A DNA stretch of 64,000 bases from a virus (IMGVR_UViG_3300042516_004811:32001-96000), one strand, 5' to 3'. Counted from the stretch's first letter, positions 5,869-32,319 are shown. Notes: a model not told the origin generated them from the letters alone. Program-made: numbers and translations.

Positions 5869-6196
5869 TGTTTGCTCCTTTGTAAGCGGTTGGTAGGGAC
5901 AGACACACCATACCATGCATGGTTCAGACTTAGTAACTCTTGACAGCCCGACTTATCTACCTACATAGAAGCCTTGCCAGCATTGGCTCTCCGACTTATC
6001 TACCTACATCAGCGCACACCTCTTATGTGGTGCGTTGCAGGTGGCATGTTGGCGCACGGATGATTCTCCGACTTTTCTAGCCGTCCCCCCATGCCTGCGC
6101 CCACCAGCCTGCGCTGGAGCCCCGCACCGCTCGGGCTTACAACGGGGCTCTTGTGGCCGGCGAGAGATTTATTGACTTTTTGACTTATCTACCTAG

Positions 6197-6685
6197 TCAG
6201 TCGCGTTCGTCTTTACTGACGCTCCACAGCCCGCGTTTCACCTTAACGAAAATCGGACTTTCTGAAACGTACTTCAGTGTTGTCTGGTACGAGAACCCAG
6301 ACTGCTCGACCAGTTGCTCGGTTGTGAACTGTTCCCCTCGATGGCCTTGAGCCCACTTGTCAAAGTTTTCCCATTTATTTGCGCGCTTCTGTGGAGCTTC
6401 TTCCTTCTCACGCTTTGAGCTGTACTTGAGGCTGGAGTAACCGAGGTTGTCCAGCACATACTGTGCTGACTCCTCTGATACCGAGTAACTGCGTAATGCA
6501 GAGATAGGCGAGCCACTGCCACCATCTCGCTGCCAAATCTGAACAACGTACATCCCTCGCAAAATCTCGTTTATGCGAGTCACTTCTTCCTTTGGAACTG
6601 CGAACAAGTTCTTGTATTTCTTCTCGGCCTCACCCCACAGTTGTTCGTGGTGGATGTCAATGACCTCACTTGTTATCTGATTCAT
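6197..6685 (-). CDS. hypothetical protein, possible C-terminal winged helix
   Basis: ORF with GAGGAAGG RBS; FTTEQLVEQSGFSYQTTLKYV...F.KVKRGLW. Confidence 0.6.
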   Translation of the reverse strand: MNQITSEVIDIHHEQLWGEAEKKYKNLFAVPKEEVTRINEILRGMYVVQIWQRDGGSGSPISALRSYSVSEESAQYVLDNLGYSSLKYSSKREKEEAPQKRANKWENFDKWAQGHRGEQFTTEQLVEQSGFSYQTTLKYVSESPIFVKVKRGLWSVSKDERD

Positions 6686-6921
6686 GTTTCCTTCCTCGGA
6701 CTTATCTACGTGTCCACCCAGCATGGTAATGGAAAAATCAACTATTTGACAAATGCTAAGTTCCGCCAGGCAAGTCTTCCCCCACCGTCATTGCCTACCT
6801 TCCCTGGTTTTCCGCCGCAGCCGGCCGCAGGTATGTAAAAAAAACGAAAAATTGAACACGGTTTAAGCCCTAGGGCTCAATCCAGCCGGGGCTCCACACC
6901 GCATTGAGCGAGTTGGGGCAT

Positions 6922-6960
6922 AAAAAAGCGAGAGCCACCATCCCCGTCAGATGGTGGCTC
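6922..6960 (-). terminator. intrinsic terminator
   Basis: GAGCCACCATC/GATGGTGGCTC stem with T-tract on the minus strand, downstream of 7010..7228. Confidence 0.7.
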
Positions 6961-7009
6961 CCTACTAGGTAGATAAGAAGAAAGGAAATAAACACTTATC
7001 TACCAGTCC

Positions 7010-7228
7010 TTAGAGGAAGGTGAACTTGTCACCCGCCTCTGATACGAGTCCAAGGCTACTGCCATTATCCCATTTCACAAACACAGTGCCAATGTCATCT
7101 ATGTGGTCAATGGTTCCCTCGTCACCAGCACGGAGCGTGGTGTATGGGTCGGCAGTGAAATCCAGTCTTATCCTTCGCCCGATGTAGTTGTCACGCATTT
7201 CCTTGATGACGGTCATTATGTGCTTCAC
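7010..7228 (-). CDS. DUF4314-like protein
   Basis: GRRIRL...DPYT.L..GDEGTIDHIDDIGTVFVKWDNGSSLGLV...DKF pattern. Confidence 0.75.
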   Translation of the reverse strand: MKHIMTVIKEMRDNYIGRRIRLDFTADPYTTLRAGDEGTIDHIDDIGTVFVKWDNGSSLGLVSEAGDKFTFL

Positions 7229-7374
7229 TTGTCTGCTCCTTCCAGTTGTTCCTCTTGCAGTACGAGAATCCGCATGTCCAACAACATGTCCACCATTTCA
7301 CTAGTAGAGATAATGTCCCTGCCTGAGCAGGACGCTATTGCGTTGTCCAACATCTTGATGAGTTCGGCGTTCAC
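7225..7374 (-). CDS. small hypothetical protein (49 aa, not in ORF track)
   Basis: GTG immediately after the upstream stop; GTGA overlap with the next gene; MNAELIKMLDNAIASCSGRDII... Confidence 0.55.
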   Translation of the reverse strand: MNAELIKMLDNAIASCSGRDIISTSEMVDMLLDMRILVLQEEQLEGADK

Positions 7375-8061
7375 TTATTTACCTTCCTTTCTTGCTCGGG
7401 CAAGAAGGTCTTGGTACTCGGAAGTACGCAGAGCCATTTCCATGTATTGACAGATAGCGATGAGTGTGTCGGGGATTCGCCCAAACTCGCTGTCCTCTTT
7501 TAGTTCGCAGACCTCTGCCTTTGGTTCGGAGAACTGTGGGATTCCTTGGTCGTCGTACTTGTAGGGAGCAACGCTGTGCCACAACTTGTCTGCACCCCAG
7601 TTGATAGCGGTGATGACATGAGCCTCGCACACATCGGTAAATGGATTCTCCTGAAACTCCTTCTGCAAGTCGCCTCGGTTCATGTTCTTCATGTTCGCAC
7701 GACCTTCTTCGGGGTCGGTGAATGAGCGTGTGTAGCCCTCAACAGCGAGGATGATGAAGTCAAACTTGGCAATGGGCATTGCCTTGACCACATCCTCAAT
7801 GCAGTCCACTACATCCTCTTTGTGAATCAGAGGAATCATTGCAAGGTGGTAGGGCTTGCTCAGACCAACTTCCTGCTGGAACTCAACACAGGTGTCGTGT
7901 TCGGGGTTGGTTTCATTGCTCTCAACAGCGATGAGCATAATCGCAGGATTATCGGACATTGGCTCCGACTTGCACATCTCTATCTTGGCAAACTGTGAGC
8001 GAATAATCACATCCTCTACGAGAATCTGACCGTCCCTCTCAATGGCTTCTTTGGTGTTCAC
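7375..8061 (-). CDS. hypothetical protein, apparent paralog of 58147..58788
   Basis: 228-aa ORF with AAAGGA RBS and its own promoter; shared QxAK, EGY, DL...F, V.E, APY motifs. Confidence 0.75.
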   Translation of the reverse strand: MNTKEAIERDGQILVEDVIIRSQFAKIEMCKSEPMSDNPAIMLIAVESNETNPEHDTCVEFQQEVGLSKPYHLAMIPLIHKEDVVDCIEDVVKAMPIAKFDFIILAVEGYTRSFTDPEEGRANMKNMNRGDLQKEFQENPFTDVCEAHVITAINWGADKLWHSVAPYKYDDQGIPQFSEPKAEVCELKEDSEFGRIPDTLIAICQYMEMALRTSEYQDLLARARKEGK

Positions 8062-8167
8062 AGTGTTTCCTTTCTGTGGGTTGGTGGTAATGGAAGCATA
8101 CCATGTATGGTTCAGACTTATCTACTGACTAATGGGGCTATCTCTCCCCAACGGTCAGCAATGTACT

Positions 8168-8374
8168 TCATCCAATAATGGAGTCAGTGGGGATTCCGAG
8201 TGCCTTGCCAAGAGCAACTAGCGTCTCAACGCTTGGCATGAAGTGACCGTTCTCAATGCGATTTACGGTCTTTCTGTCAATGCCAGCCCGAGAAGCAAGT
8301 TCTATCTGTGACCAGCCTGCGTTCTCACGCAGTTCCTTCACTCGCTTACTAATGGTTTCTTGTGTTTTTGTCAT
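8168..8374 (-). CDS. XRE/Cro-family HTH transcriptional regulator
   Basis: VKELRENAGWSQIELASRAGIDRKTVNRIENG...PSVETLVALGKALG. Confidence 0.9.
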   Translation of the reverse strand: MTKTQETISKRVKELRENAGWSQIELASRAGIDRKTVNRIENGHFMPSVETLVALGKALGIPTDSIIG

Positions 8375-8407
8375 GGGGGTTTCTGTTTCTGTGGAGTTAT
8401 CTACTGA

Positions 8408-9121
8408 TTAGACGCTTGGAATGAAGGACTCCACATACCTTCCTTCCTTGCGTTGTCTGTCTGCCTTCCGCTTCCAAACGAGATACTCGTTCATTACGGT
8501 TTCAGCATCTGTGTACATCATGTCTGTGTTGTTGTTGCGCCAGTCGTTATGTGCTTCGTAATACTCATCCCACAGCATGGTTTCGTCTTTTTCTGTTGCT
8601 TCGTCATACAACTTCTGCAAATCTTCTGGCATGCGGTCAGTGTCAAGGCTTCCTTCCTCAACTGTTTCTCCGTTAGCGATTACTTCCCAACCGCAGAACT
8701 GATGACCTTCTTCATCATAAGAAAGCGAGAACACGAGATTCGGAAACTGCTCAGACACAGACTGAATCAACTTCGTTGCAGGTGACCATGCGCTCTCAAA
8801 TCGCACATGAAGTGGATACGAGTTTTCATCGTCTACTTCCACATTGCATGCACCCCACTTTGTTCCCCACTTCTCTATTGCGTCTGCGTATCCGTCAAAG
8901 CCGTCTGACTCCGTGCTTGCGAACACCGAGAATGTGGTGGTCACATCGTTTCCATCTTTGTCCTTGTGTGTGCTGACTTTCTCAATGCTTCCCCTCGGGT
9001 CAAGAGGAACGAGTCTGTTCAGTTCATAGCACTGCTTCGGTTCACGCATTGCGCTGATGAGTTTCCGCAGTTCACGCTTATTGCCAGCGACCAACATGTT
9101 TGTGTAGCACCAGTTAGGCAT
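8408..9121 (-). CDS. DUF1281/YubB-like ferredoxin-fold protein
   Basis: MPNWC..N, WGTKW and F.SAWSP motifs. Confidence 0.75.
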   Translation of the reverse strand: MPNWCYTNMLVAGNKRELRKLISAMREPKQCYELNRLVPLDPRGSIEKVSTHKDKDGNDVTTTFSVFASTESDGFDGYADAIEKWGTKWGACNVEVDDENSYPLHVRFESAWSPATKLIQSVSEQFPNLVFSLSYDEEGHQFCGWEVIANGETVEEGSLDTDRMPEDLQKLYDEATEKDETMLWDEYYEAHNDWRNNNTDMMYTDAETVMNEYLVWKRKADRQRKEGRYVESFIPSV

Positions 9122-9409
9122 GTCCAGTTCCTTTCGGGTTTAGTTCCATGCGATGTACCATACCAGCACAGGGACAAACTTATCTACCTGACTCATCCAC
9201 CACCGTCATTTGGTTTTTGGAGACTTATCTACCTGTCCCCCCGTGCTCCTCGTCTTTCGGTTGGAGAAAGTTCGTAGTTAGATTTATCTAAATGTCCACC
9301 CACACGAGCGACCTTCGGTGTCACGGCGTGAGCCCCGGCGCTGGTCCGTGCATAGCGGGGCTCCAGCTGGAGTTATCAGATTTCAGGGAAAGTTGGTGGA
9401 CTTATCTAC

Positions 9410-9745
9410 TTAGATGGACTCAACAGGAGAAGCGTAGATAAGTTCCGAGTAGGCAATGCGCCAGCCCTCGTCACTACCTTGCCAAGCGATACGGATAATG
9501 TCACGCACTCCACTTAGGTATCGGAACACTGCATCATCGTCAATGCCAAAATCGTCTAGTTCATCACCCACAGGTGGAGCAGAGAAAGAGACATAGGCGT
9601 AAATGTGGTGGCTAGCCTTTTCTTCCCATTTCAGTGCAACATCAGCACCAACCAGTATGCGCCCCTGCGTTGCCGTGTGATACCAGTGTGTGAACATCAC
9701 TGCGATAGTCCACGCACAACGACGCAAAAAGTTATCTACCCACAT
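9410..9745 (-). CDS. hypothetical protein
   Basis: ORF from MWVDNF with AAGGGG RBS. Confidence 0.5.
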   Translation of the reverse strand: MWVDNFLRRCAWTIAVMFTHWYHTATQGRILVGADVALKWEEKASHHIYAYVSFSAPPVGDELDDFGIDDDAVFRYLSGVRDIIRIAWQGSDEGWRIAYSELIYASPVESI

Positions 9746-9962
9746 TGAGTCCCCCTTCCACGGTACGGAGCGTTGCGTCTGCAACGGCGAGAGCAAGTGT
9801 ACGGGCATCAACGCCATGCTCATCAGAAATCCATGGAAATAGATGACCGTCTCGTATGTCATCCCACATGTTGCACATTGCTTCTACTGGCGTGACACCG
9901 AGAGTGTTGTATTCAGTCCATAGGAAGTCTGTGAGTTCGCCCACGCTCATCGGCTCACTCAT
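9732..9962 (-). CDS. hypothetical protein
   Basis: 76-aa ORF with ATGA overlap to upstream gene. Confidence 0.55.
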   Translation of the reverse strand: MSEPMSVGELTDFLWTEYNTLGVTPVEAMCNMWDDIRDGHLFPWISDEHGVDARTLALAVADATLRTVEGGLNVGR

Positions 9963-10171
9963 TGCGCTACTTCTTCTACCTTGATAGTTGAGATACTGGT
10001 GAGGTTCTTGCGGAAGTCAAATGAGAACTTCATTGCCCAGTAATCCAGCATGACGCTCTGCGCTTCTTCGCAAGCCTCTTTGAGTTTCTTGGGAGAGATA
10101 GAGTCGTCAAAAATGATGTCCTCTGAAATCTCTGTACCACGGATTACGCCCGTAACTCTGTACTTTGCCAC
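9959..10171 (-). CDS. hypothetical protein
   Basis: 70-aa ORF; RBS and GTG start are formed by AAGGAAGGTAGATAAGTG. Confidence 0.6.
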   Translation of the reverse strand: MAKYRVTGVIRGTEISEDIIFDDSISPKKLKEACEEAQSVMLDYWAMKFSFDFRKNLTSISTIKVEEVAQ

Positions 10172-10208
10172 TTATCTACCTTCCTTCCGAATCCGTGCCA
10201 GTCTACTT

Positions 10209-10790
10209 CTAGACCAGCAACTCCTTGACCCAACCAAATCGCTCATCCACTCGCATCGCAGCCAAGCCAGCGTCAATGGCTCGCTGTGCGTTAGTGTCAA
10301 TGGAAGCAACGACAGGCTGACGGTTGAGAACACTCTGAACATCCTTGGCAGTGAGAGCCAAGCCATCTCCAATAAAAGCGACCAGCAGTTCAGTGCTAGG
10401 TGCGAATCGGTTGGCGGTGTTGTGCAGGCTCATGTACTCGTTGCGCACGACACACACACGCTGAACCGTGTAAGCGGTCGGGTACTCCTGTGAGCAGTTG
10501 CGCCCGTTGTCAATGACCACGAAATCGTAGTCGGAAACATTGACAGATGAAATCTTTTCACTGTCACCGACACGCACCATGTCCAAGTTGGGGAACACGC
10601 CCTTGGCAACCTCTCCACGGGAACCAATGGGTAATGCAATATTGAGCCACGGATAAGTGTCGGGGGAGTAGCCCGAATCAACGAGCAGAGTAGAACGCCC
10701 CTTATTCGCAAGAATCAAAGCCAATGAGCAGGCGGTTGTGGTCACTCCCACTCCGCCCTTGTATGAATGAATGTCGTAAATCTGTGTCAT
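10209..10790 (-). CDS. ParA/MinD-like P-loop protein with degenerate Walker A
   Basis: KGGVGVTTTA (canonical KGGVGKTT), TLLVD, YDFVVID. Confidence 0.75.
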   Translation of the reverse strand: MTQIYDIHSYKGGVGVTTTACSLALILANKGRSTLLVDSGYSPDTYPWLNIALPIGSRGEVAKGVFPNLDMVRVGDSEKISSVNVSDYDFVVIDNGRNCSQEYPTAYTVQRVCVVRNEYMSLHNTANRFAPSTELLVAFIGDGLALTAKDVQSVLNRQPVVASIDTNAQRAIDAGLAAMRVDERFGWVKELLV

Positions 10791-10849
10791 GTTTTCCTCT
10801 CGGTAGGTGTTGCTAGTAACTGTACCACTAACGGTTCAGACTTATCTAC

Positions 10850-11236
10850 CTATTCCTCGTCCTCGTCGTCCGACCAAAGTTCGTTTTCGTCCTCTGAATC
10901 GTCCTCAAACTCATCCTCGTCATCGCTGATGAACTGAACGGTCACGGATGAAACTCGTCCGTCCTCTGCGTATTCCACGAATACGGGATACAGGCCGTCT
11001 CCCCAGCCTGATGAGACACACACGCCAGCACCAGTGCCACCATGCTTGTAGAGCAACTGCCCACCACCCTGCTCACTGAGGGAAGCACCGCAGGCTCCGT
11101 TATACGAGTACGGGTGGGTCTCTCCCTCTGACGGCGCAAACTCCTCATCGCTGAGGAAGTCGCTGACATAGCACGGGTCGGTCAGGAGAATCTGTCCTGA
11201 ATCCACTCCGCAGTATCCGATGAGTTTCCGTTCCAT
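10850..11236 (-). CDS. DUF4241-like protein
   Basis: GVDSGQILLTDPCY and SGWGDGLYPV motifs. Confidence 0.65.
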   Translation of the reverse strand: MERKLIGYCGVDSGQILLTDPCYVSDFLSDEEFAPSEGETHPYSYNGACGASLSEQGGGQLLYKHGGTGAGVCVSSGWGDGLYPVFVEYAEDGRVSSVTVQFISDDEDEFEDDSEDENELWSDDEDEE

Positions 11237-11585
11237 TTCTTATCTACCTTTCTTGGTGGGTGATGTGAACGACTGTACCACACACGGTTCAGACTTACAA
11301 AGCGAGTCATCCACCACCGTCATTGTGTTAGGGGGGTGTGTCAGAGTTATTTACCAGCCCCACCAAAAAAGCGAGAAATCTGAAACAGGCATGACTTATC
11401 TACTTGTCCCCCCACGCGCACGGGTTCACCGCCACCCGCAGGGAGCCCCGGCGGTCCACTGCATGTAGCGGGGCTCCAGCCGAACAGGTGGGTATGTGGC
11501 TCGGACTTATCTACCTACCTAGGCAGGGGGGCAGAGTGAGGGTAGATAAGTATGGGGGGCGCACTTATCTACCCTCTACCGCCAG

Positions 11586-11906
11586 TCAGTCGTCCAACCC
11601 TCTCAACTTGCCGCCTCGCACCTCGTAGTCGTGGAGAGCGTCAGCAATGTTCCTACGGTATTCGCCATTCCCGAAAGACCAGCCCTCGGGACGGTCGTAG
11701 GCGGTGAACACAGCGAACGGGTGGAGTGGGTTGTGGGGCAGGAGACACAGCACCACCCACACGGCGTAGGTGTCTATGTCAGAGGGGCGCAACAGCCAGC
11801 ATGCGAGGACGGTGTAGGCGTAGTCACTTGATGTAGGCGTGACCACTTCGCCCACAGAGAGCAGGCGCATGGGATAGGTGTCGGTCGGGGACTTATCTAC
11901 TGACAT
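11586..11906 (-). CDS. hypothetical protein
   Basis: 106-aa ORF directly downstream of the DUF3846-like gene. Confidence 0.55.
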   Translation of the reverse strand: MSVDKSPTDTYPMRLLSVGEVVTPTSSDYAYTVLACWLLRPSDIDTYAVWVVLCLLPHNPLHPFAVFTAYDRPEGWSFGNGEYRRNIADALHDYEVRGGKLRGLDD

Positions 11907-11909
11907 GGC

Positions 11910-12362
11910 TTACTTCCCTTCCAGCCAAGCGTCAAACTCGTCATCGGTCAGAGATACGACCTTCGGACTGGGGTCATCCATGATTCGGGCGACTTCCGCC
12001 TCTACGGTGGTGCGCACTCGCTCATCGTTCAGAATGAGTCCAGCGATGAGATGAAAACGCTCGCCCATGAACTCGGCAGGCACGTCGTAATCGTTTCCGT
12101 CGTACTCGCCACGCTCATTCAGATAGCCAACGACCACACAGTCACCCACGAGAGGACGACCGAACAGAACGCTCGCCACGAGATTCGGAGCAAGACCGAT
12201 GAGCAGTCCCTCGTCGTGGACGTAGCCAGCGAGATTCTCGCCATTGGTCACGCAGTCAATCCAACCGCCAACCAGTGAGTTGATGGTCTGATAGGCGTTC
12301 TCCTCGGGGAGAGTGACGGGTGCGATTCCCCCGTCTGCCTTGATTAGTAGTGCTTGTGTCAT
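11910..12362 (-). CDS. DUF3846-like protein
   Basis: LVGGWID.V...YVHDEG...N..AS....LVGD.VVVG pattern; AAAGGA RBS. Confidence 0.75.
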   Translation of the reverse strand: MTQALLIKADGGIAPVTLPEENAYQTINSLVGGWIDCVTNGENLAGYVHDEGLLIGLAPNLVASVLFGRPLVGDCVVVGYLNERGEYDGNDYDVPAEFMGERFHLIAGLILNDERVRTTVEAEVARIMDDPSPKVVSLTDDEFDAWLEGK

Positions 12363-12721
12363 GTGGATTCCTTTCTCCGTTGGTGACACCTGAACTGTAC
12401 CACCACAGGTTCAGACTTACAAACCGAACTTATCTACTTGCTCCCCCATCCCAGCCTCGCCCTCTCGCGCGGTGGGAGCCCCGGGGTTCTGCCAACTGTG
12501 GCGGGGCTCCAGCTCGGCACGGCTCGCTGGCTGTGAGTGGGGTGGCAGGTAAGAAAGTCGCAGATTTCTGTGGTGGTTGCTTCTTATCTACATTCTCTCT
12601 ACCGCCCTCGCTCACGCTCGGTTGCTCTCGGAGTAATAGGTAGATAAGTCGGGACAAAGAGAAGCCCCACCACTCTCCCCTAAGTAGGTAGATAAGTGGT
12701 GGGGTTCCCTTTGGGGGTCTG

Positions 12722-13135
12722 TCAGGCAGTCGCCTTCTTGGTGGACTTGACTGCCTTCGGCTTGTCTGCGCCCTTCGTGGGTCGCACCAGCACTCGCACA
12801 GAGTGAGAGATTTCCACGCAGGTACGAATGACCTTTGCGGAGATTTCGCCTCGCTCAACTGAGGAGTCCCACGCCTTCGTGTCCACCGTGGGCTTCGTGA
12901 CCTTGCGGAACACGGCAGGAGAGACAGCCTCACGCAGTTTCTCCAAGTTCCACGAACGGCGTTCGGCGGGGGACAGTTTGACCGTCACCTCGTCAAGAGC
13001 CACTTCGTCAAGCCCGTGGCTTGCGAGCGTGTCCAGCAGGATTTGGCGAGCCTCGTCGTGGGCTTCCTCTGCCCTCTCTTTGAGGGTGAGAGCGTCAAGG
13101 TAGCCCTTGACTGCGTTGGTTACTTGCTTGTCCAT
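12722..13135 (-). CDS. hypothetical protein
   Basis: ORF from MDKQV with GAAAGGGA RBS and conserved upstream promoter. Confidence 0.7.
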   Translation of the reverse strand: MDKQVTNAVKGYLDALTLKERAEEAHDEARQILLDTLASHGLDEVALDEVTVKLSPAERRSWNLEKLREAVSPAVFRKVTKPTVDTKAWDSSVERGEISAKVIRTCVEISHSVRVLVRPTKGADKPKAVKSTKKATA

Positions 13136-13630
13136 TTCAGTATCCCTTTCGTGTTGAGTGGTGGACACCACCACTCTACACCACATAGTTCAGACTTCAC
13201 AACTTCCCTTGACACTTATCTACCTAGTCAGGGACAGCCCACACGCCAGCGCACTTATCTACCTTCATTCGCCTCGCACATTTGCCAACTAAGATGACTT
13301 ATCTATGCGCCCCCCCATTCCAGCCAGCCCTCTCCGCACGGCTGGAGCCCCGTTGTTTCGGCAGTTTGGTGCGGGGCTCCTGGCTCGGCTTGCCCGCAAC
13401 CTCAGTACGGGGGGCAGGTAGAAAAGTGGAGATTTCATCACTCAACCAACTACGGCTATCTCGTCTAGCCATTCGCCTCGCAGAGATAGAAGCAGACCTC
13501 GGGTTCGTGGAAGCGCAGAACGCAGAGAACAGAGCAGTCCTCCGCAGAGCCACATTCCACTCGGTTTCAGAGTTATCTACCTCCCCTGAACCTCCCACTA
13601 TCTAGGTAGATAAGTGTCCCCAGACAAGCG

Positions 13631-13667
13631 AAAGGGGGAGTGAGCAACCAACTGCCCACTCCCCCTT
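13631..13667 (-). terminator. probable intrinsic terminator
   Basis: AAGGGGGAGTG/CACTCCCCCTT stem downstream of 13701..14123. Confidence 0.55.
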
Positions 13668-13700
13668 GCTTGGGGCGTTTCCCTTATAGAGAAAGGGAGG

Positions 13701-14123
13701 CTAGAGGTACTCCGCCACGCTCTTGAGTGTGGTTGCCGACACATACTCTTGGTCGGTCATTTCCAGCACTCGGATTGCTTGTTCCAAAGCCTCTCGGTCA
13801 GCCTTCCAGTTCCACTCCTTGTAGAGTTCGGGGGACTCGGGCTCGCTTCCGATAGTGGACTTCGGGAACTCAAAGGTCGCCTGAATGGTCACGACCTTTT
13901 CCTTGTTGTTGGGTCGCCAGCGAGAAGTGGTTGCCTCCGTGACCTTGCCCTTGCCAGCCTTGACAAGTTTCAGCAGGTTGGTGTTGTATGCCTCCACAGC
14001 CTTGTCATACTCGGCTTCCAACTTGTCGTTGTTGGCGAACCGCTTGGCTCGCTCGTCAAGTGCCTTCTTGAGTGCCTCCAAGAGAACACTCACCTTGACT
14101 TTCACCTGAAGTGATTTGGACAT
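13701..14123 (-). CDS. hypothetical protein
   Basis: 140-aa ORF with AAAGGA RBS and conserved promoter. Confidence 0.75.
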   Translation of the reverse strand: MSKSLQVKVKVSVLLEALKKALDERAKRFANNDKLEAEYDKAVEAYNTNLLKLVKAGKGKVTEATTSRWRPNNKEKVVTIQATFEFPKSTIGSEPESPELYKEWNWKADREALEQAIRVLEMTDQEYVSATTLKSVAEYL

Positions 14124-14468
14124 TTCCTTTTCTCCTTACCAACGGCATTTCTCGGTTGTGAACCGCTGGCACAGGCACAGTACCACATACGGGACAGACT
14201 TCATAACTCAACTTATCTACCTGCCTCCCCATTCCCAGCGCACAGCCATTCGCACGGCAGAGCCCCGTTGCTTCTGCGATTACGGCGGGGCTCCGGCACT
14301 CGGCGGTTCTAACTGCGAGCGTGGGTGGGCAAGTAAGAAAGTCGGGAAATAGAAACGCATTTAGTTGGCTCGGAGAGTTATCTACCTTTCTCATTTAGGT
14401 AGATAAGTCGGTAGATAAGTGAAAGCCCCTACCCACTAGGGGCAGGGGCTTCACTCGGGGGGTCTCGG

Positions 14469-14909
14469 TTAGAAGGCTCGCACCAGCAGGTTCTGAACTG
14501 CGTCAGCGAGTGAACCCGTTGCCTGTCCTTCATCCACGACTGGTTCAGTCGGCTCGTCTTGGAAGCGGAGAACGCTCACCACGCTCTCACGGCTGGCGAA
14601 CACGGAGAGACGGACACGCCTCTTGGCAGGGTGTTCGCTCGGTGCGCCTTCGGCTTCGCCCTCGCTGTTGAGTGGCGCCGCCCAGCCTGTCGTGACAAGT
14701 GCTATGTAGTCGGACACCTGCGCCACCTTTACGGCAGTATCGCTGTCCAGCAGGTCGTACACATCCCGTTCGGCGGTAGCGAGCGTCAGGCTCACCTCTC
14801 CGTTCAGGTCAATGTTCACGGAGTAGAGGTGTGCGCTACCCATTTCGTAGCCCACCTCTGCGTCAATGATTTCTTCCGCTCTGGAAGCACTTTCGGTGAA
14901 TGTTGCCAT
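14469..14909 (-). CDS. hypothetical protein
   Basis: ORF from MATFTE with GAAAGGGA RBS; TGWAAP and PSEHPAKRRVRL motifs. Confidence 0.7.
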   Translation of the reverse strand: MATFTESASRAEEIIDAEVGYEMGSAHLYSVNIDLNGEVSLTLATAERDVYDLLDSDTAVKVAQVSDYIALVTTGWAAPLNSEGEAEGAPSEHPAKRRVRLSVFASRESVVSVLRFQDEPTEPVVDEGQATGSLADAVQNLLVRAF

Positions 14910-15308
14910 TTGGTTGTCCCTTTCTCGGTTGGTTGGTTGGACACCACGACAGTACCACATACGGTTCAGACTTAGCAAGGGTGGGACTTATCTACCTAGT
15001 CAGCGAGTGCGCTGGTGAGGTTCTTCCACCACCGTGAATGTCTTGGGGAGAGGTTGTCACGCCCTGCCTCACCGCACGGCTTGACGAACTCGGCAACTTG
15101 ATGCGACTTATCTACTTGCCCACCCCTTCCTGCGCCTCACCGCCCCAGCACGGCGGAGCCCCGGCGGTGATGAGCGTCAGCGGGGCTCCTGCCCACCATC
15201 GGCGCACGGAGAGAAATGTCATCGGCTCGGCATTGGGTCGGACTTATCTACCCCCTCACAGAAAGGGGGAGAGAGAGGGTAGATAAGTGCCGAACGCCTA
15301 CGCTACCG

Positions 15309-15599
15309 CTAGGGGTTGCGTGGCGAGTCTGTGGGGAGATGAATGGTCTGCCAAGTGTCTATGCCTGCCCCGTACATCGCTACCAGCGTGTCAATGACGG
15401 CGAGAACATCGCCAGTACAATGACGGCGAGCAATACCGTCTAGCGTGTCGCCACTCACTACCTCAACGCTACGCACGGCGCAGGAAAAGGTGGGAGGCTC
15501 TACCGCCTTGCGTACCGCCCACACTCCTGCCCACAGCAGGGCGAACACTATGGGCGTGAACACTACGAAACGGCGCACGGTGTACTTATCTACCCTCAC
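15309..15599 (-). CDS. membrane-anchored LysM domain protein
   Basis: N-terminal TM helix followed by VVSGDTLDGIARRHC...IDTWQTIHLP. Confidence 0.7.
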   Translation of the reverse strand: MRVDKYTVRRFVVFTPIVFALLWAGVWAVRKAVEPPTFSCAVRSVEVVSGDTLDGIARRHCTGDVLAVIDTLVAMYGAGIDTWQTIHLPTDSPRNP

Positions 15600-16063
15600 G
15601 CCGTTGCCTCCTGAATAGCGATGCTCTCCCACGGGTGAGCCTTCTCAAAAATGGCAACATCGTTACCGTTCTCGTCTTTCGTAATGCGCCGAACTTCCAA
15701 CCTGTCATCGTGAATGATGTACAGCCACTCGCACCACGCAAGTTCCTTGTCCTCATTGGTGAACCACGCCGAAGGGTCGTAAAGGCTCGTGTCCGTGTGT
15801 GCGTAGCCGTAGCCTGTCACGCAAGCGTGTGCTTCGTAAAGGCTCGGCTCTCCTGCCTCGCTCGGCTTGGCAAGTGGGTCAATGATAGACCACGAAGCGT
15901 GTTCATAGCAGAGCGTGTGTGCCACATTCACTCTGCCGTCTCGTGCTACAAGTTCGCCAAGAACTCCCACAATGCGTTGTGGGTAGTTGTCCCAATGGAC
16001 ATACCTGCCACGCCACCCGTTTCCGCCGTGTGTTGCGTGTGCCACTATTCCTCGTGTTGCCAT
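15596..16063 (-). CDS. conserved-looking phage hypothetical protein
   Basis: MATRG.V...GRYVHWDNYP...G and EWLYI motifs; GAAAGGG RBS. Confidence 0.7.
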   Translation of the reverse strand: MATRGIVAHATHGGNGWRGRYVHWDNYPQRIVGVLGELVARDGRVNVAHTLCYEHASWSIIDPLAKPSEAGEPSLYEAHACVTGYGYAHTDTSLYDPSAWFTNEDKELAWCEWLYIIHDDRLEVRRITKDENGNDVAIFEKAHPWESIAIQEATA

Positions 16064-16382
16064 TGCTTTCCCTTTCTCGTCAGTTGCTATGGACACCACC
16101 ACAGTACCACGCAAGGTTCAGACTTACAAACCCAAACTTATCTACCTGTCACCCCACGCACGAGCCTCTGCCCTCGCACGGCGAGAGCCCCGATGTTTAG
16201 CCGTCTGTGGCGGGGCTCCAGCTCCTCGCTCACACTCACGCCGGCACGGGTGGACGCGTAGATAAGTCGGCAAAGTTCAGTCAAGTTCACGACGCTTGCA
16301 GGTTGGTTGTGTTCATACAGACGCATAGACCTATCTACCCTGCCGTTACTAGACAAGGTAGATAAGTCGTGCGGTTAGTTAG

Positions 16383-16781
16383 TTATTCGTCGTCGGACTC
16401 AAACACGGGGACAACAAGGCTTGCACTGCCAGTTGGAGCATCGTGGTGCGAGAGAGAGAACTCAACTCGGTCAGAGAACACTCGGTAGCGGAGAATCCAT
16501 TCTGAATCCACGGTGATTGCACGAACGAACTCGGAGACGGTGCGAGCCTGAAACACTCCACCAACTTCACGATTCCAAAGACGGATTCCCGAAACTCGGA
16601 AAGTGTCAGATTGTGAAAGAAAGTTGTTCAGACACTCGCCAAAGAAGTACAACTCATCTTCGTAGCAAGTACCGAAACACACGGGAGAATCCGTGAAGGT
16701 ATCGGTTTCTTGGTCGTGCACGGTGCAGGTGCAAGTGTTGGTCAGTTCGCCATAGGCGACTGGCATCTCGGTGGTGGTCAT
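16383..16781 (-). CDS. hypothetical protein
   Basis: ORF from MTTTEMP with GAAAGGGA RBS and conserved promoter. Confidence 0.7.
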   Translation of the reverse strand: MTTTEMPVAYGELTNTCTCTVHDQETDTFTDSPVCFGTCYEDELYFFGECLNNFLSQSDTFRVSGIRLWNREVGGVFQARTVSEFVRAITVDSEWILRYRVFSDRVEFSLSHHDAPTGSASLVVPVFESDDE

Positions 16782-16847
16782 TTCATTCCCTTTCTCGGTG
16801 GTGGACAAGCACAGCGTACCACGCAAGGGTCAGACTTATCTACCTTG

Positions 16848-17102: not shown

Positions 17103-17355
17103 AATAATCCCTCTCCGTTAGTAGCACAACACAACGCTAACACAGAGTGTTCAGACTTATCTACTCGCCCACCCACACACAGCACTCGCACCTCGCGTAG
17201 CGGGAGCCCCGGCGTGGCTCGCTCTGTGGCGGGGCTCCTGCCCAAGGCGGTGGCAGGTGTGTGAACGGGGAGACAGGTAAATAAGTCGTCATCCCACCAC
17301 AAACTTTCTCGGATTTATTTTGACACTTACCCACGCAACGAACCTTCTAATAGAT

Positions 17356-17526: not shown

Positions 17527-17591
17527 ATAAGTACGGGCAGGGGCTTACCTACCTACATAGAACACGCCACATAGGTAGATAAGTCAGGCGA

Positions 17592-21032: not shown

Positions 21033-21419
21033 ATGACCAAGACCACCGAGTACGACAAGAAGTTCCAAGACAAGTACGGCAATGATGTTCCCAAGGGTGA
21101 TGGCGATTGCTTTGACAAGGCCGTGGAAGTAGCGGAGCGATTTGAGAAGGACTACCCCGATGTTCTCATTGTTCACGGAGAACCGATTGGCACGGGTGGT
21201 GAAGCATTGGGGGTTCGCTTTCCTCACGCTTGGGTTGAGTTGGACCTAAATGGCTTTGCGCTCGTGATTGACGAGTCCAATGGAAACGATGTGACGATTT
21301 CCAGGGATTTCTACTACGCTTTCGGCAACATCGTGGAAGCCGATGTGGTGAGGTACACGCTGACCGAGGCACGGATACAGATGCTGAAGCACAAGCACTA
21401 CGGCCCTTGGCACTGGTAG
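21033..21419 (+). CDS. transglutaminase/papain-like (Cys-His-Asp) domain protein
   Basis: GDCF...HG...HAWVE...VID spacing. Confidence 0.6.
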   Translation: MTKTTEYDKKFQDKYGNDVPKGDGDCFDKAVEVAERFEKDYPDVLIVHGEPIGTGGEALGVRFPHAWVELDLNGFALVIDESNGNDVTISRDFYYAFGNIVEADVVRYTLTEARIQMLKHKHYGPWHW

Positions 21420-21628: not shown

Positions 21629-21800
21629 AGAGGTAGATAACAATGACCGTGCGGAGGGGGACCCCCACCCCCTCTAATCGGCCCCCGGAGCCCCGCCATG
21701 ATTCGTTTTCGGGGTGGGCATGTAGATAAGTTGACGAAATCCACAGCCGGTCTGTATCCTGAGCCATCCGGGGTGTAACCCGATACCAGAGGAGAAAACC

Positions 21801-22193
21801 ATGGCTACCAAGCCTGCGAAAAAGACCGCCAAGAAGGCGGCACCAAAGAAGACGGTGGCCAAGAAGCCTGCCGCGAAGAAGCCCGTGGCAAAGAAGTCGC
21901 CGGCCAAGAAGAAGCCTGCAGCCAAGAAGGCAAGCGCGAAGAAGGCGCCTGCCAAAAAGGTTGCTGCAAAGAAGTCGCCGGCCAAGAAGGCTGTCGCAAA
22001 GAAGGCTCCGGCTAAGAAGGCTGCAAAGACTGTTGCCAAGAAGGCTCAGCCGAAGAAGAAGCCGATTGCAAAGAAGCTTGCGAAGGTCATTCCGATTACG
22101 CGTCGTAGCAAGTCGACAACGCGCAAGGATGTGAAATACGTATCCGTTCTCTCTACACCAGTGAGTGACGCGACTCCGGAAAGCAATTCCTAA
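21801..22193 (+). CDS. histone H1-like Ala/Lys-rich DNA-binding protein
   Basis: many PAKK/AAKK repeats; GAGGAG RBS. Confidence 0.8.
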
Positions 22194-25562: not shown

Positions 25563-26588
25563 TCAACGACTTGACAAGAGGAAATCCTGAGCTTTTATCT
25601 TTGAACGAGTCACCCAAGAATTGTTATCCATTGACGCAAGCGCACGCTCTGTCACTGTTGCATCACGATAGTGGTCAAGGTATTCACCAATAGCATTCAC
25701 TAGTGACCACCCGTTGTACCCATAGCCCTTTGCGTTGTTGTCGTTGTCATACACCGCACGAACAAGTGAAAGCACATTGTCTCTGTTGCGCTTCTGACGC
25801 TCTGTTGCACTTGTTTCCAGTGGAAATACTGCATTCAGTGTTTCGTTCAGTACTTTTGAGCCAGGCGCAACGGGGATTGACAGAAGTTTCTCAGCAGTTG
25901 CTGTAAACGCTTTTGCCCATTCATTGGAGATTTCGAGCACACTGTTTGCTTCTTCAATCGCACGCTCGGCGTTGCGTGTATGACGAGCAGTGAACACTCT
26001 CCGTGCACTGCTAAGACCTGCAACAACAGTGTTCTTGCATACGGCGCGAATACTTGTGTTTGCGAACGTAATCGCCGTCTTTCCGTCGTGCCCATTGCGA
26101 ACTAGTAGATAACGCTCAATCTGGTCATTCACGCCCATTGGGTCAATGACAAGCGCACCTAGGTCAAGAGATGAGAAGAACTCTCTGCCACCATTGAGAA
26201 CACCGCAAGTATCTACTACTGCATCACCCGTAGATGCTCCTGCGATAGCGAGCGCATAGTCAAGACATTCACGATTTTGCTGCACCACGTAGCGTGTGCC
26301 AACCGTTGCAAGACCATTGAACGTGCCGTCACCATTGACACGCACTGTGGCTCTACTGTCTGGTACTAGAACGAGCGAGCCATCAGAGTTTCTGATTACT
26401 TCGCCATTATCGTCACACACTGCTACCCGTGTGGTCACGACATCAAAGTTGGCCTGGGCGGCGGCGAGCATTGCCTCTGCCGTCTGCAAGCCCTTCATTG
26501 GTGTTCCAAGGCGATGCCAAGGGATTTCCCTGTCGGCGTAAGCCATTCTGGCTGTGCCGTCTTCGTTGATTTCTATGTCGTGTGACAT
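25563..26588 (-). CDS. DUF932 family phage/plasmid protein
   Basis: PWHRLG, Y.VQQN, YLLVRNGHDG, IRAVCKNT, RHT, W..VNAI.EY.DH. Confidence 0.85.
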   Translation of the reverse strand: MSHDIEINEDGTARMAYADREIPWHRLGTPMKGLQTAEAMLAAAQANFDVVTTRVAVCDDNGEVIRNSDGSLVLVPDSRATVRVNGDGTFNGLATVGTRYVVQQNRECLDYALAIAGASTGDAVVDTCGVLNGGREFFSSLDLGALVIDPMGVNDQIERYLLVRNGHDGKTAITFANTSIRAVCKNTVVAGLSSARRVFTARHTRNAERAIEEANSVLEISNEWAKAFTATAEKLLSIPVAPGSKVLNETLNAVFPLETSATERQKRNRDNVLSLVRAVYDNDNNAKGYGYNGWSLVNAIGEYLDHYRDATVTERALASMDNNSWVTRSKIKAQDFLLSSR

Positions 26589-26781
26589 TTCGTCTCCGTT
26601 CGCTATTTGCTTGTAGATAAATCTATCTGAAAGTACCCCCTTTCAGGCAGATGATTTCAGGCGGGGCTCCCCCTTGGGGGTGGGTTGGGCGCACGGGGAA
26701 CGGGTAGATAAGTCTGAACCGTATGTGGTACAGTGTTGATAGGAGGCACCAACGCCCCCGAACCGACCGAAAGGGGTCACC

Positions 26782-27081: not shown

Positions 27082-27255
27082 ATAAGTCTCGCCAAGCGAG
27101 GGTTCCCTGATTGAGGGGGTGAGCCAATCGGTTCGCCCCCTTTATCTATGGGTAGATAAGTCCAGCAGGAGCCCCGCTGACCAGGGTGAGCTGGGGTGGA
27201 CAGGTAGATAAGTCGAAGAGTTGATTTTTCTCTTTGCATTGTTTATTATGGTGAC

Positions 27256-28506
27256 ATGACTGGTACTGAAAGCCCAAAGGGGTTCACCTCGCCGTTAGAG
27301 GCACATGAAATGCAGACTGAATACCTGGTGTGGCGCAAAGGCCACCCGAGCGCAGACCGACTATTGCACGCATCTCAGTGGACTGCTCAGCAGAATGGAT
27401 TGTTTGAGTCGGTAGTTACATTGGAGAACAGAGAAAAGCAGTTCGCAGACTCGCGCGTTGCTCATAACGTGTGGCGTTTGACGGATGATGAAATCATTTC
27501 CCGTGCAGACACCGTGTACCTATCGGAAGAACTGCACGAATTGGTGCACACAGCATCGGAGTCAATGCCTGATGAAGTTCTTTTTCGCACTGATGTCTAC
27601 ACGCCGTGTGCAATGGTTTTCCTTGAACGCCCAATCCAGGTGAGGGTTCACGCTGGATGCTTATCGGATGACATTGACGAAATAGTAGATAAGGTTCGTC
27701 AATACGGTGGAACCGTTGAGGGAACCCGTAAGTACACGCAGACAGAGGACGGATACCTTGATGGCGTAGACGTTTACGAAATCGTTGCATTTTCGTGGGG
27801 CGATTGCGAGTCAATCTATCCTCACGTGCTTGAATCGGTAGCGAAGCAGTATGGCACTGCTAGTCCTGAATACAAATTCCAACTTGAGTTGGAACACTAC
27901 GAGAAGGAGGAATTGAATCACGCACGTTTTGTTGAAGAGGACGGAACAGAGCACCCGATGAACGCAATCATCGTTGGTGTGTTTGGGCGTATTGTCAGCT
28001 CAGAGATTGACGGTTTGACACTTGCCGTAAGAAACCCACTCATCTCGTTGAAAATGAATCTGATTGACAGTTACTACTTTATGTATGGAGAAGATGGTTT
28101 TCAACTTGAAAATGACTCGTTTGAAGAAGCAATGAATCAGTCAAGTTTTGACCGTTATCGCAGGTCTCGTAGATTCATCGTTGCACTGTTGCGTTTGATG
28201 AATGAGTACGTAGATGTTGAAACAACCCGTGTGCCTCGCCCGTTCTCTCGCAGGGGCGCAAGGGCTGGACGCGTGAACACTGACAGTATCACCACGCTAG
28301 AACTACGCAGGGCGCTCTACGGTGATAGTGATTCAGCAACAGGGCGCAAGGTATCGCTCGCACACCTTGTGCGTGGACACTGGCGTAATCAGTGGTATCC
28401 ATCGCAACAGATGCACCGTGCTCGCTGGATAAATGCGCACCGCAGAGGTGGAAGCGCAACAGATGAAGTGGTAGATAAGCCTCGCATCGTGACAGTGACG
28501 AGGTAG
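27256..28506 (+). CDS. hypothetical protein with C-terminal H.VRGHWR motif
   Basis: 416-aa ORF; HLVRGHWRNQWYP...WINAHRRG; TTGATT-N17-TATTAT ending 6 nt before the ATG (leaderless). Confidence 0.8.
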   Translation: MTGTESPKGFTSPLEAHEMQTEYLVWRKGHPSADRLLHASQWTAQQNGLFESVVTLENREKQFADSRVAHNVWRLTDDEIISRADTVYLSEELHELVHTASESMPDEVLFRTDVYTPCAMVFLERPIQVRVHAGCLSDDIDEIVDKVRQYGGTVEGTRKYTQTEDGYLDGVDVYEIVAFSWGDCESIYPHVLESVAKQYGTASPEYKFQLELEHYEKEELNHARFVEEDGTEHPMNAIIVGVFGRIVSSEIDGLTLAVRNPLISLKMNLIDSYYFMYGEDGFQLENDSFEEAMNQSSFDRYRRSRRFIVALLRLMNEYVDVETTRVPRPFSRRGARAGRVNTDSITTLELRRALYGDSDSATGRKVSLAHLVRGHWRNQWYPSQQMHRARWINAHRRGGSATDEVVDKPRIVTVTR

Positions 28507-28669
28507 CACTACTCACTCAGGAGCCCCGGCTGCTAGCGCCCTCGCGCGTTCGCGCTTCGGTTGCTCTCGGGCAGAGAATGCAAGTAGGTAGATAAGACCT
28601 AGCCCCCACCCCACTTATCTACTAAGCAGGGCAGGGGCAGGACTAGCAAGCGGAGATAGGGAACGCTTG

Positions 28670-29661: not shown

Positions 29662-29862
29662 TTTTTCCCTTTCGTTTGGCGACACACTCACCGTATCACA
29701 CGTGGTACAGACTTACAAGTATTTCCCGACTTATCTACCTGCCACCCCACGCCACAGCAAGCCCCAGCCTTGCACCCTGCCGGGAGCCCCGCTGATTAGC
29801 GGTATGCTGACGAGATGCCAGTACTTTACGGACATTCCACAAGCACGGAGGACGGGAACGAT

Positions 29863-30491: not shown

Positions 30492-30545
30492 AACTGCGAG
30501 CGTACCACACTGGGGACAAACTTAGCAACCCGTGGCACTTGCGCC

Positions 30546-30917
30546 TTATCTACTGAATGCACCTGAGGTCATTCGTATGAATGTTGAGTAGGCATACTGC
30601 TTGCGTTGGCTTGCGATGTACTGCGCTTCGTACCGCTTCCATCTGTTCATTAGTTCCAGTTCGGTATCCGATGTTGCGATACCTAACTGTCTCTCGGCTT
30701 CCGCCATCAGGGATACCATCTGAAATGGGACACCCGTGGAGCTCCACGGCGTTACGTCGTGCGCACGACAAGCATCAAGCACTTTGGTGGTGAACAGTGC
30801 TGCGAGGTGAATTCTCGTCATTCTTTCACGCTCATCTATCTCAAAGAATGACGGCGCACCAACACTTATGCGTTCACGCAATACCGCATAGGGCGTGACA
30901 AACAGATAGGTGTTCAT
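30546..30917 (-). CDS. hypothetical protein
   Basis: 123-aa ORF; stop codon inside repeat box. Confidence 0.55.
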   Translation of the reverse strand: MNTYLFVTPYAVLRERISVGAPSFFEIDERERMTRIHLAALFTTKVLDACRAHDVTPWSSTGVPFQMVSLMAEAERQLGIATSDTELELMNRWKRYEAQYIASQRKQYAYSTFIRMTSGAFSR

Positions 30918-30954
30918 TGCTCACAACAGTATCACTGCGTGAGAGACGTGTCAC

Positions 30955-31134
30955 CTATCCCCACTTGACCTCATTGCCACTACTCTTTTGTTCAGGCAAC
31001 ACGCTCACTACTTCTATGAGTGCGCCTTGTGTCAAGAGGTTGTACACAGTTGCAACAGCCTCATCAACTGTTGTCGGATTGTCAAGGTCTTTGTGCTTGC
31101 GCACTGCGACTGTTAGTCGGAATGTCTCGCTCAT
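30955..31134 (-). CDS. small hypothetical protein (59 aa, not in ORF track)
   Basis: hand translation MSETFRLTVAVRKHKDLDNPTTVDEAV... Confidence 0.45.
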   Translation of the reverse strand: MSETFRLTVAVRKHKDLDNPTTVDEAVATVYNLLTQGALIEVVSVLPEQKSSGNEVKWG

Positions 31135-31138
31135 TGGC

Positions 31139-31324
31139 TCAGCCTATCGCCTCATAGAACCTCGCAATAGCAACTGCTTGCTCAGGGGAGACACACTCAA
31201 TGGTGTCTACCTGCGTGTGTGAGACGCCATCTGTATCAGTGCTCTTGGCGAACACTTGTACCACACTGCCAAGGGGCAGGGCGTGAATGACCCTGGGTCG
31301 TATGTGGGTCGTTGTTGTATCCAT
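31139..31324 (-). CDS. small hypothetical protein
   Basis: ORF from MDTTTTH; TTGACA...TACTGT shortly upstream. Confidence 0.5.
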   Translation of the reverse strand: MDTTTTHIRPRVIHALPLGSVVQVFAKSTDTDGVSHTQVDTIECVSPEQAVAIARFYEAIG

Positions 31325-31669
31325 ACCGCTCACAGTAGTGGGTGGGTGTGTCAATGTAAAGGGTTCGTGCGACTTATTTACCTGCTCACCCGTGGCACTT
31401 GGGCGACCAATGACTAGGGTAATGGTATGGCATTCGGTCAAGAAGATGGGTGGGAGAGGGCGATACCTGAACGCTCACTGCCTGAGGTAGATGGGCGCAC
31501 TGTTGTCGTGCGTGCCTACACGGCGATAGGTATGGGACTACTAGGGCTTGCCTCACTAGGTGGGTGGTATGTCGGCTGGCTACCCGTGGCGTGTGTGTAC
31601 TCTGCCTTGTTCTACTTCTCTCTGCGTACTTATGACAACGAGCACGATAGTGACTCACCTACTCACTGA

Positions 31670-32150
31670 CGCATTGCTCACTGTATCGCTAGCCTTGCTC
31701 ACTGCTTGTGCGTAACACACTCACACTGCTTGTCTCTCAACACTTCACACACACTCACTTACACTTTGTGTGTTTGCTTGTCGCTTGCTTGCGTGTGTGT
31801 TCGCATCACACTTACAACGGCGTACGTGTGTGCGTGTGTAACACACTGCGTGTGAACACTTGACGCACTATGTATGTATGCGTTTATTGTTTCGTGTCGT
31901 GACATACTTCGTGCGCACTTCGTGTTGCGTTGCGTTGGCAATGGCGTAGGCAAGTTCATAGCACTTCATAGGCACTTCATAGGCACTTCGTGAAGCGCTT
32001 CGTATGTGTTGCGCAATTGCTTGACACACTTTCGTAATCGTTGCGCATTGCGTGTGCGTTGCTACTGCGTTGCGTGTGCGTGTGTGTGTGCGTTGCGTGT
32101 GCGTGTGTGTTGCGCTCACCCCGTGACTCATTGCGTGGCAGTCCATCATT
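31670..32150. repeat. low-complexity TG/CA-alternating region with short tandem repeats
   Basis: GCACTTCATAG tandem at ~31954-31990; GCGTTGCGTGTGCGTGTGTGT twice at ~32067-32111. Confidence 0.85.
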
Positions 32151-32319
32151 GCACGGACGCCGACCCCATGCGCTGTGAGCCCCGCCTACTTTCACTGGCA
32201 CCCCCCAACCGGTGGCCAGCTACTACAGAAATTTTGGACTCCAAATTACTTCACTTAAATTTATCCAAACCTGCCCTAGGAGCCGGCGATAGGGTCGCGG
32301 CCGGCGATAGGATGGCCGT

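Follow-up and report, generated by a model that had tools for sequence, protein, structure and literature searches.

We analyzed a stretch of 64,000 nucleotides (hereafter the window) that covers bases 32001-96000 of the 151,107-bp IMG/VR virus record IMGVR_UViG_3300042516_004811, which has 127-bp terminal repeats; coordinates refer to the window unless genome positions are stated. The early region of this phage is studded with the word GGAGCCCCG (core AGCCCCG), mostly facing its inverted copy CGGGGCTCC. About half of our confidence lies with the reading that this word is an operator-like or boundary site for a putative sequence-specific factor that reads duplex DNA. Taken together, our tests favor a reader of duplex DNA over other kinds of signal, because the word is invariant without covariation, is conserved in copies that cannot pair, is excluded from the remainder of the genome, occupies an operator position at a small-RNA promoter, and harbors tetramers that are otherwise avoided. 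We infer that this reader is a protein and that it would act on transcription, either by repressing or blocking it or by setting its boundaries.

The window contained the exact pattern GGAGCCCCG-N15-22-CGGGGCTCC seven times, compared to zero in 100 shuffles, and the 9-mer in 29 copies compared to 0.35 expected. When one mismatch was allowed, the scan returned 13 copies, of which seven were perfect and six harbored one mismatch. This is in agreement with the number given in an earlier note, which had been made on this DNA from its sequence only. As the note had also stated, the spacers measured 18 nt (nine copies), 19 nt (three copies) or 17 nt (one copy), were all distinct, and were not followed by a T run in any copy. 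According to our own gene calls, all 13 copies were intergenic. A run of the type CGCA(C/G/A)GGC, said by the note to precede most copies, was seen in approximately 8 of the 13. The pairs, to which no strand is assigned, are as follows.

6116-6151: inverted pair GGAGCCCCG-N18-CGGGGCTCT, intergenic
9329-9364: inverted pair TGAGCCCCG-N18-CGGGGCTCC, intergenic
11442-11477: perfect inverted pair, N18
12475-12510: perfect inverted pair, N18; minus-strand promoter 57 nt away
13344-13380: perfect inverted pair, N19
14259-14294: inverted pair AGAGCCCCG-N18-CGGGGCTCC; minus-strand promoter 58 nt away
15155-15189: perfect inverted pair, N17
16184-16219: inverted pair AGAGCCCCG-N18-CGGGGCTCC; minus-strand promoter 59 nt away
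17203-17238: perfect inverted pair, N18; minus-strand promoter 45 nt away
18461-18496: perfect inverted pair, N18; spacer appears inverted compared to the other copies
19778-19813: inverted pair, N18, right arm CGGGGCTCT; minus-strand promoter 43 nt away
20266-20302: perfect inverted pair, N19, at the switch in gene direction; early promoters 40 nt (minus) and 61 nt (plus) away
20921-20957: inverted pair, N19, serving the plus-strand promoter 21002-21026 of gene 21033-21419

Each pair forms the center of a two-fold symmetric module of roughly 125-130 bp, in which a box CTTATCTACCTGCCNCCCCA, about 25 nt, the pair, another 25 nt or so and the mirrored box TGGGGNGGCAGGTAGATAAG follow each other. 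Where both boxes are clear, the module is mostly 121-131 bp long, two copies being wider (141 and 156 bp), and the promoter-side box is located 35-39 nt from the arm in 11 of 11 minus-sense copies. Two modules, again without strand, illustrate this organization.

16137-16266: whole 130-bp module consisting of a CTTATCTAC box, 38 nt, the pair, 38 nt and a GTAGATAAG box
17156-17285: second example of a 130-bp module

The box holds a second and far commoner repeat, (G)ACTTATCTACC(T), the core of which (CTTATCTAC) is present in 85 copies on both strands, nearly all of them at genome positions 23-63 kb. This repeat varies from phage to phage (GACTTATCTACCT, GACTTACCTACACC, GACTTATCTATTAC, GACTTATCTACTC), whereas the arms of the pair do not. 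It is often found as inverted pairs around terminators and overlaps the -35 area of the early promoters; it also bears what we take to be a loose resemblance to the DnaA box, at 7 of 9 positions.

The module occupies the gap between two small early genes, past the terminator of the first and ahead of the promoter of the second, and a terminator-like hairpin belonging to the preceding gene was found upstream of it. Units of the early region are approximately 1 kb long and mostly consist of one small gene with its own promoter and its own terminator; DUF3846 and DUF6011 were the sole clear Pfam matches among these cassette genes. Genes are called on the minus strand up to about 20.3 kb of the window and on the plus strand beyond. 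The early promoters share the consensus AAGTCTGAACC-N5-TGGTACAGT, i.e., AAGTCTG(A/T)(A/C)CC-N5-TGGTAC(N)GT, an extended -10 promoter type whose spacer region is conserved; it is common to relatives with only ~55% protein identity. The whole genome harbors 21 of them, all located within 5.9-30.5 kb of the window and each directed at a gene, and nearly always a leader, a ribosome-binding site (RBS) of the GAGAAAGGGAA type and a start codon come next. The distance between pair and promoter was 40-61 nt for eight promoters and 124-186 nt for five, while eight promoters had no pair within 200 nt. The start codon nearest to any pair was at least ~75 nt away. Four of these promoters are listed below.

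12394-12418, minus strand: early promoter AAGTCTGAACC-N5-TGGTACAGT; leader, GAGAAAGG-type RBS and ATG come next
20202-20226, minus strand: early promoter, minus arm of the divergent pair
20362-20386, plus strand: early promoter, plus arm of the divergent pair
21002-21026, plus strand: early promoter whose -10 lies only 6 nt ahead of the ATG at 21033

To follow the word across related phages, we used IMG/VR, where scans returned 131 related stretches and an exact-pattern scan pointed to several contigs of ~150 kb with many copies each. An independent and near-identical contig, IMGVR_UViG_3300032050_001058, contained the same copies. We then compared the phage under study (G000) with four IMG/VR relatives that carry the word (G001-G004). 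These harbor 12-14 pairs per genome, about 1 kb apart, except for the fragment G004, which shows three. The pairs separate matching cassette genes, the order of which is conserved across genomes, and the early-region proteins of G000 share only ~55% identity with those of the other genomes. In these five genomes, the 7-bp core was identical in 54 of 54 copies, variation being limited to the two outermost stem positions. By fetching 80 further loci via a conserved neighboring gene, we raised the total to 113 distinct pairs across relatives, and the core was identical in these as well. Their spacers measured 16-20 nt in 80 pairs and 24-29 nt in 25, with a few at 31-45 nt and none at 21-23 nt or below 16 nt; the two main groups are thus about one helical turn apart. 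As for their placement, co-directional gaps accounted for 90 pairs and divergent gaps for 14; convergent gaps had none, and one pair was located within a called gene.

In distant lineages, the pair is found 5-8 nt after a T-tract terminator and 1-23 nt before a lineage-specific repeated promoter-side motif. One distant relative (G013) has its arms swapped (CGGGGCTT-N22-AAGCCCCG), and two others (G008 and L163) have mostly solitary copies, many of them in coding DNA and in different reading frames. All eight distant relatives tested were rich in the word, with 27-60 copies; the control had 0-6, a GC-richer genome being the one exception.

The word is furthermore confined to one part of the genome. 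In the whole genome of G000, the core occurs 19 times on one strand and 18 times on the other, always at 30.6-64.2 kb. Outside the early region, no copy was found on either strand in the remaining ~120 kb of G000-G003, compared to 3-6 copies per strand for the reversed control word. The early region also avoids certain palindromic tetramers, and the claim that the hairpins retain them was confirmed: between 6000 and 21100, the observed/expected ratio was 0.28 for CCGG and 0.19 for AGCT, and 8 of the 14 surviving CCGG and 4 of the 11 surviving AGCT were located in or at the hairpins.

Besides the pairs, the word is present as single arms and, in one place, as a direct repeat. All half sites reported in the note could be recovered and are listed here together with two further single arms.

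869-877, plus strand: single GGAGCCCCG; matching sites in G001-G003 lie within a gene of cluster 35
2696-2740, plus strand: two CGGGGCTCC in direct orientation (2696 and 2732), starts 36 bp apart, in a convergent gap; G002 has the same pair (42347/42383)
6887-6895, plus strand: single CGGGGCTCC, ~35 nt beyond the T-tract terminator of the upstream minus-strand gene
21687-21695, plus strand: single GGAGCCCCG, then 15 nt and a GGGGTGGGCATGTAGATAAGT box, upstream of gene 21801
26662-26670, plus strand: single CGGGGCTCC upstream of promoter 26710-26734; a single arm is retained here in G001, G003 and G004
27168-27176, plus strand: single GGAGCCCCG, 16 nt before a box, upstream of gene 27256-28506
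28520-28528, plus strand: single GGAGCCCCG in a convergent gap
29783-29791, plus strand: single arm with one box (29728-29770), upstream of the minus-strand promoter 29690-29714
32176-32184, plus strand: single TGAGCCCCG, core intact

The arms to the right of the array had been regarded as the products of a progressive decay. They are, however, not simply decay products: several are conserved as exact single arms at the same places in relatives, and we regard them as functional single sites rather than relics. Indeed, exact single arms are conserved in four genomes upstream of the genes matching 27256-28506 and 25563-26588; in G001, G003 and G004, the gene matching 27256-28506 is preceded by a single CGGGGCTCC, that is, in the orientation opposite to that of G000. 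Similarly, the order and orientation of the solitary sites to the left of the array are conserved in four genomes. Because the spacers vary and because single arms, a direct-repeat pair and copies in loops and in coding DNA exist, we consider the unit to be a word of 7-9 bp and not a dimer site with arms 27 bp apart. The earlier proposal of a dimeric protein bound to fixed arms thus stands only in part: the constraint on the sites is strong and sequence-specific and recognition by a protein is the best reading, but the spacing is not rigid, since the family has spacers of 16-20 and 24-29 nt and a few of 31-45 nt.

A further copy is found at a conserved small-RNA gene (genome 30681-30790, locus L302), about 1.2 kb before the start of the window; the loop of this RNA mirrors the early RBS. 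Here, a CGGGGCTCC copy, CGGGGCT(C/T)C, begins 2-3 nt downstream of the -10, an arrangement shared by G001 and G002. This is where a repressor would sit. The invariance of the asymmetric word, its single copies in either orientation and its avoidance elsewhere in the genome are all features of an operator-type site.

We therefore propose the following scheme. A factor from the phage or from its host would dock on the word in duplex DNA, where the word is usually set as two inverted copies 16-20 bp apart that center the symmetric module, the nearer arm lying some 75-110 bp upstream of the predicted transcription start. Since the module is inserted between a terminator and the next promoter, it would mark, and probably insulate or co-regulate, the borders of about a dozen early transcription units, by a logic similar to that of an operator or a roadblock. 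The module is dispensable for promoter activity itself, because eight early promoters have no upstream pair and because G001 has only a terminator, a box and a promoter at a junction where three relatives carry the full module.

The latter junction is among several observations that weigh against this scheme. No protein that could be claimed as the binder was found. The spacing between the arms varies by +/-2 bp, and the distances from arm to promoter, which run from 41 to 73 nt without gaps, show no clear phasing, so that helical phasing between the two was rejected; a rigid dimer or a classical activator would be expected to show tighter spacing. Additionally, 11 of the 12 intergenic copies in the distant relatives G006/G007 are located at the 5' edge of hairpin loops, the stems of which are copy-specific and 6-18 bp long and in some cases begin at the stop codon, further copies being found within genes. 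A display in loops on variable stems looks like a single-strand or RNA signal. Alternatively, the terminator loop may be the one place left free for the word where gaps are very short.

We also searched for a candidate reader. The only helix-turn-helix gene of the XRE type in the genome is located within the early region (8168-8374, minus strand), and its recognition helix, RKTVNRIEN, is identical in the five genomes G000-G004. Four other word-bearing genomes have homologues, but none was detected in the complete genome G006, which has 60 copies of it. In spite of the invariant helix, we thus do not claim the XRE protein as the binder; a host factor is a possible reader.

Among the other explanations, we considered that the pair might act as a hairpin of RNA or single-stranded DNA at the 3' border of early transcripts, i.e., as a factor-dependent terminator, a read-through barrier or a processing or stabilizing element of which a protein reads the stem or the loop. 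We regard this as a possibility, albeit a rather unlikely one. The two arms form a perfect inverted repeat, the entire module can be folded into a long imperfect hairpin (z ~ -2 to -4), it is always located just past the terminator of the preceding gene, and the canonical terminators of these phages have similar AGCCCC...GGGGCT stems. The loop display in G006/G007 points in the same direction, while the tendency of solitary copies in G000-G003 to read AGCCCCG on the sense strand, 60-120 nt past the stop codon, would suit a polar DNA roadblock and an RNA 3' element alike. However, no covariation in support of a stem was found. The arms are invariant and compensatory changes are seen nowhere, the positions just outside the stem pair no more often than by chance, and the first and last positions of the loop pair below chance (18 compared to 30.9 expected), being typically G...G or C...C. 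Not one of the 113 loops is shorter than 16 nt, although shorter ones would be more stable. Conserved single arms, flipped arms and direct repeats are likewise difficult to reconcile with a hairpin, as is the exclusion of both orientations from the remaining genome. Mismatches in the outer stem show no consistent sense-strand G-U bias, and wobble as a sign of an RNA stem was accordingly rejected. The inner flanks of a module pair with their own partner no better than with the flanks of other modules; the symmetry over 130 bp therefore reflects the mirrored boxes and not a selected stem, and a single structured RNA of ~130 nt or a cruciform was discarded despite the fold. No Rfam match was obtained for window 1-34000 at E <= 1. 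An ordinary intrinsic terminator was rejected as well, in line with the opinion of the note that the sites are unlike terminators: the loops of 17-19 nt exceed the 3-8 nt of such terminators, there is no T-tract, the terminator scan flagged 0 of the 13 copies, and separate T-tract terminators are located upstream. A bidirectional Rho-type terminator, in which C-rich RNA leads into a pause hairpin, was also rejected, as C exceeds G only in G000 and G002 and not in G001/G003.

The arms could instead represent the ends of gene cassettes (CGGGGCTCC ... gene ... GGAGCCCCG), in which case the modules would be points of homologous exchange, as in the PeSLs discussed below, or of site-specific exchange, as at integron attC sites, and the N16-20 spacer a cassette junction; we find this improbable. 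In favor of it, the units of ~1 kb are self-contained, a few cassettes (clusters 62, 39, 30 and 21) have been moved or inverted between relatives, one junction has the whole module in three genomes and lacks it in a fourth, and the geometry recalls that of integron cassette arrays, whose imperfect palindromes are of ~125 bp. Yet no tyrosine or serine recombinase (PF00589 or PF00239) was detected in the 151-kb genome, which also makes the recombinase suggested earlier an unlikely reader, and neither the arms nor the boxes contain the attC core sequences; an integron-like or recombinase site was thus rejected. Moreover, the array is largely syntenic at ~55% protein identity, the homology block of the moved cassette 62 does not reach the flanking pairs but stops ~95 nt and 525 nt away from them, no breakpoint could be assigned to the arms, homologous exchange needs more than a 9-bp word, and the copies at the small-RNA promoter and in coding DNA or loops of distant relatives would be left unexplained. 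Two explanations involve the word as a single strand. It is very unlikely, in our opinion, that the single-stranded word serves as an address, with GGAGCCCCG at the 3' border and its complement at the 5' border of every early unit; in that case, the word would have been repackaged into terminator loops in one lineage, and its complement would head the small RNA that mirrors the RBS. If this were true, one RNA or RNA-binding factor could find, silence or process all early transcripts at once. Least probable of all is that a phage small RNA starting at or inside CGGGGCUCC pairs with GGAGCCCCG in early transcripts. The presence of CGGGGCT(C/T)C at the start of the small-RNA gene in three genomes and the loop display in the G006/G007 lineage would fit with this. 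However, the word is only 2-3 nt past the -10, the transcript therefore probably starts within the word and would include it only in part, and in the predicted fold some of it is paired within the small RNA. In addition, most targets in this phage are already paired in cis, in untranscribed spacers, and no homologue of the small RNA was found in distant relatives by BLAST, a weak search for this purpose.

Several other candidates for the element were tried and rejected. As regards a phage RNA polymerase or sigma factor as the reader of the motif, no match to PF04542 (sigma-70 domain) was found in the genome, nor to PF00940 (single-subunit RNA polymerase); the latter search gave no match in 14 control genomes either, lacks a positive control and does not demonstrate absence. 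A hairpin promoter of the N4 type, which serves a virion RNA polymerase and has a short stem with a 3-nt loop closely preceding the start site, does not fit with loops of at least 16 nt, conserved single arms and a separate -10-type promoter that follows. As for a guide role of the spacers, none had a match better than chance elsewhere in the 151-kb genome, with up to 3 mismatches allowed, and a CRISPR-like function was rejected on these grounds. In 185,579 species genomes, the matches listed had one site per stretch (two in one Paenibacillus stretch) and were mostly from high-GC Actinobacteria. By our estimate, their number is consistent with chance, and among the matches listed there was no sign of the many copies per chromosome expected of a host repeat of the REP/BIME type.

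We found no description of this word or module in the literature. Judging by comparison, the design of the module seems closest to the promoter-early stem-loops (PeSLs) of T4-type phages, in which small accessory genes have a stem-loop and an early promoter at their borders (PMC2839356, PMC4122927), while its logic would resemble that of stoperators and of the C1 operators of phage P1. Like PeSLs, it is a repeated composite intergenic element with a stem-loop upstream of a conserved early promoter; the order of pair, promoter at one of the two distances given above, leader, RBS and ATG corresponds to the PeSL layout, and the genes that it flanks, small, of unknown function and located within a plastic early region, each get their own start and stop signals. 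However, the stem-loops of PeSLs are working terminators of varied sequence, whereas here the arms are invariant throughout the family, have no T-tract and enclose loops of 16-29 nt, the pairs come after separate terminators, mirrored boxes give the module its two-fold symmetry, and the cassettes are mostly syntenic rather than shuffled. The stoperators of cluster A mycobacteriophages and the P1 C1 operators consist of a short asymmetric word present in dozens of copies, singly or as inverted pairs, and serve one regulator. The element described here also consists of one asymmetric word in many copies, mostly in short intergenic gaps, as single sites or inverted pairs. Those systems, in contrast, serve the immunity repressors of temperate phages and extend genome-wide, whereas the present word is restricted to the early region of a phage for which no integrase or repressor is known; unlike stoperators (mentioned in PMC3203893), which co-evolve with their repressor, its core is constant between phages. 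Other actinophage repeats with many copies per genome and a function that is still unknown are the 17-bp palindrome of Cluster O, TGTTCGGNNNCCGAACA (PMC4351075), and the ESAS inverted repeats of Cluster K (PMC3203893). The former has invariant 7-bp inverted arms and the latter 17-bp inverted repeats with a variable spacer, but their sequences differ from ours and their spacers are far shorter (3 bp and 4-13 bp, respectively); Cluster O sites are often within genes, and ESAS abut translation starts, from which our pairs keep their distance. As in integrons with their attC sites, units of ~1 kb with a single gene are parted by imperfect palindromes with conserved inner and outer boxes and a variable center. 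Unlike in integrons, no integrase was detected, each unit carries a promoter and a terminator, the R'/R'' core (GTTRRRY; RYYYAAC) is lacking, and the array is syntenic between diverged genomes.

Overall, a large group of uncultured phages of ~150 kb, probably infecting Actinobacteria, appears to have its early genes under one promoter type and one boundary word of 7-9 nt. This word has remained letter-perfect while the proteins fell to ~55% identity and the second repeat diverged, which points to a conserved regulator or boundary factor. Such a putative factor could be recovered with a simple DNA bait, and the word offers a convenient tag by which the early regions of such phages can be recognized in metagenomes. 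Its repackaging between lineages, as the stem of a long-loop palindrome, in a terminator loop or as a solitary site in genes, offers a natural experiment on how regulatory sites move.

Some minor observations were made along the way. The spacers at 18461-18496 and 6116-6151 resemble the reverse complement of the weak spacer consensus of the other copies, and the spacer thus seems able to flip between the arms. The gene next to the single arm at 21687, 21801-22193, encodes a Lys/Ala-rich repeat protein with a 15-nt period (AKKPAAKK-like) that looks similar to histone H1 or to the tail of HU. An invariant TTTCAGATAGATTTATCTA (26589-26660 and the matching places in G001-G004) is located 25-35 nt upstream of the start of a conserved 341-aa gene (25563-26588, minus strand) in all five genomes, and it harbors a short dyad related to the abundant box repeat.

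Tetramer avoidance in the early region (6000-21100) extends to TCGA, GGCC and CGCG (observed/expected, 0.07, 0.16 and 0.20); for these and for AGCT and CCGG, the genome-wide ratios were 0.7-1.0. A depletion of palindromes would fit with a segment that is first exposed to host restriction. GATC is absent from the 151 kb, where ~475 copies would be expected, which is complete avoidance of one restriction or methylation site. No close cultured relative was found by megablast, and the helicase shares at most 33% identity with Arthrobacter phage helicases. The genome encodes two WhiB-like proteins, which fits with an actinobacterial host, and the window contains ten tRNA genes.

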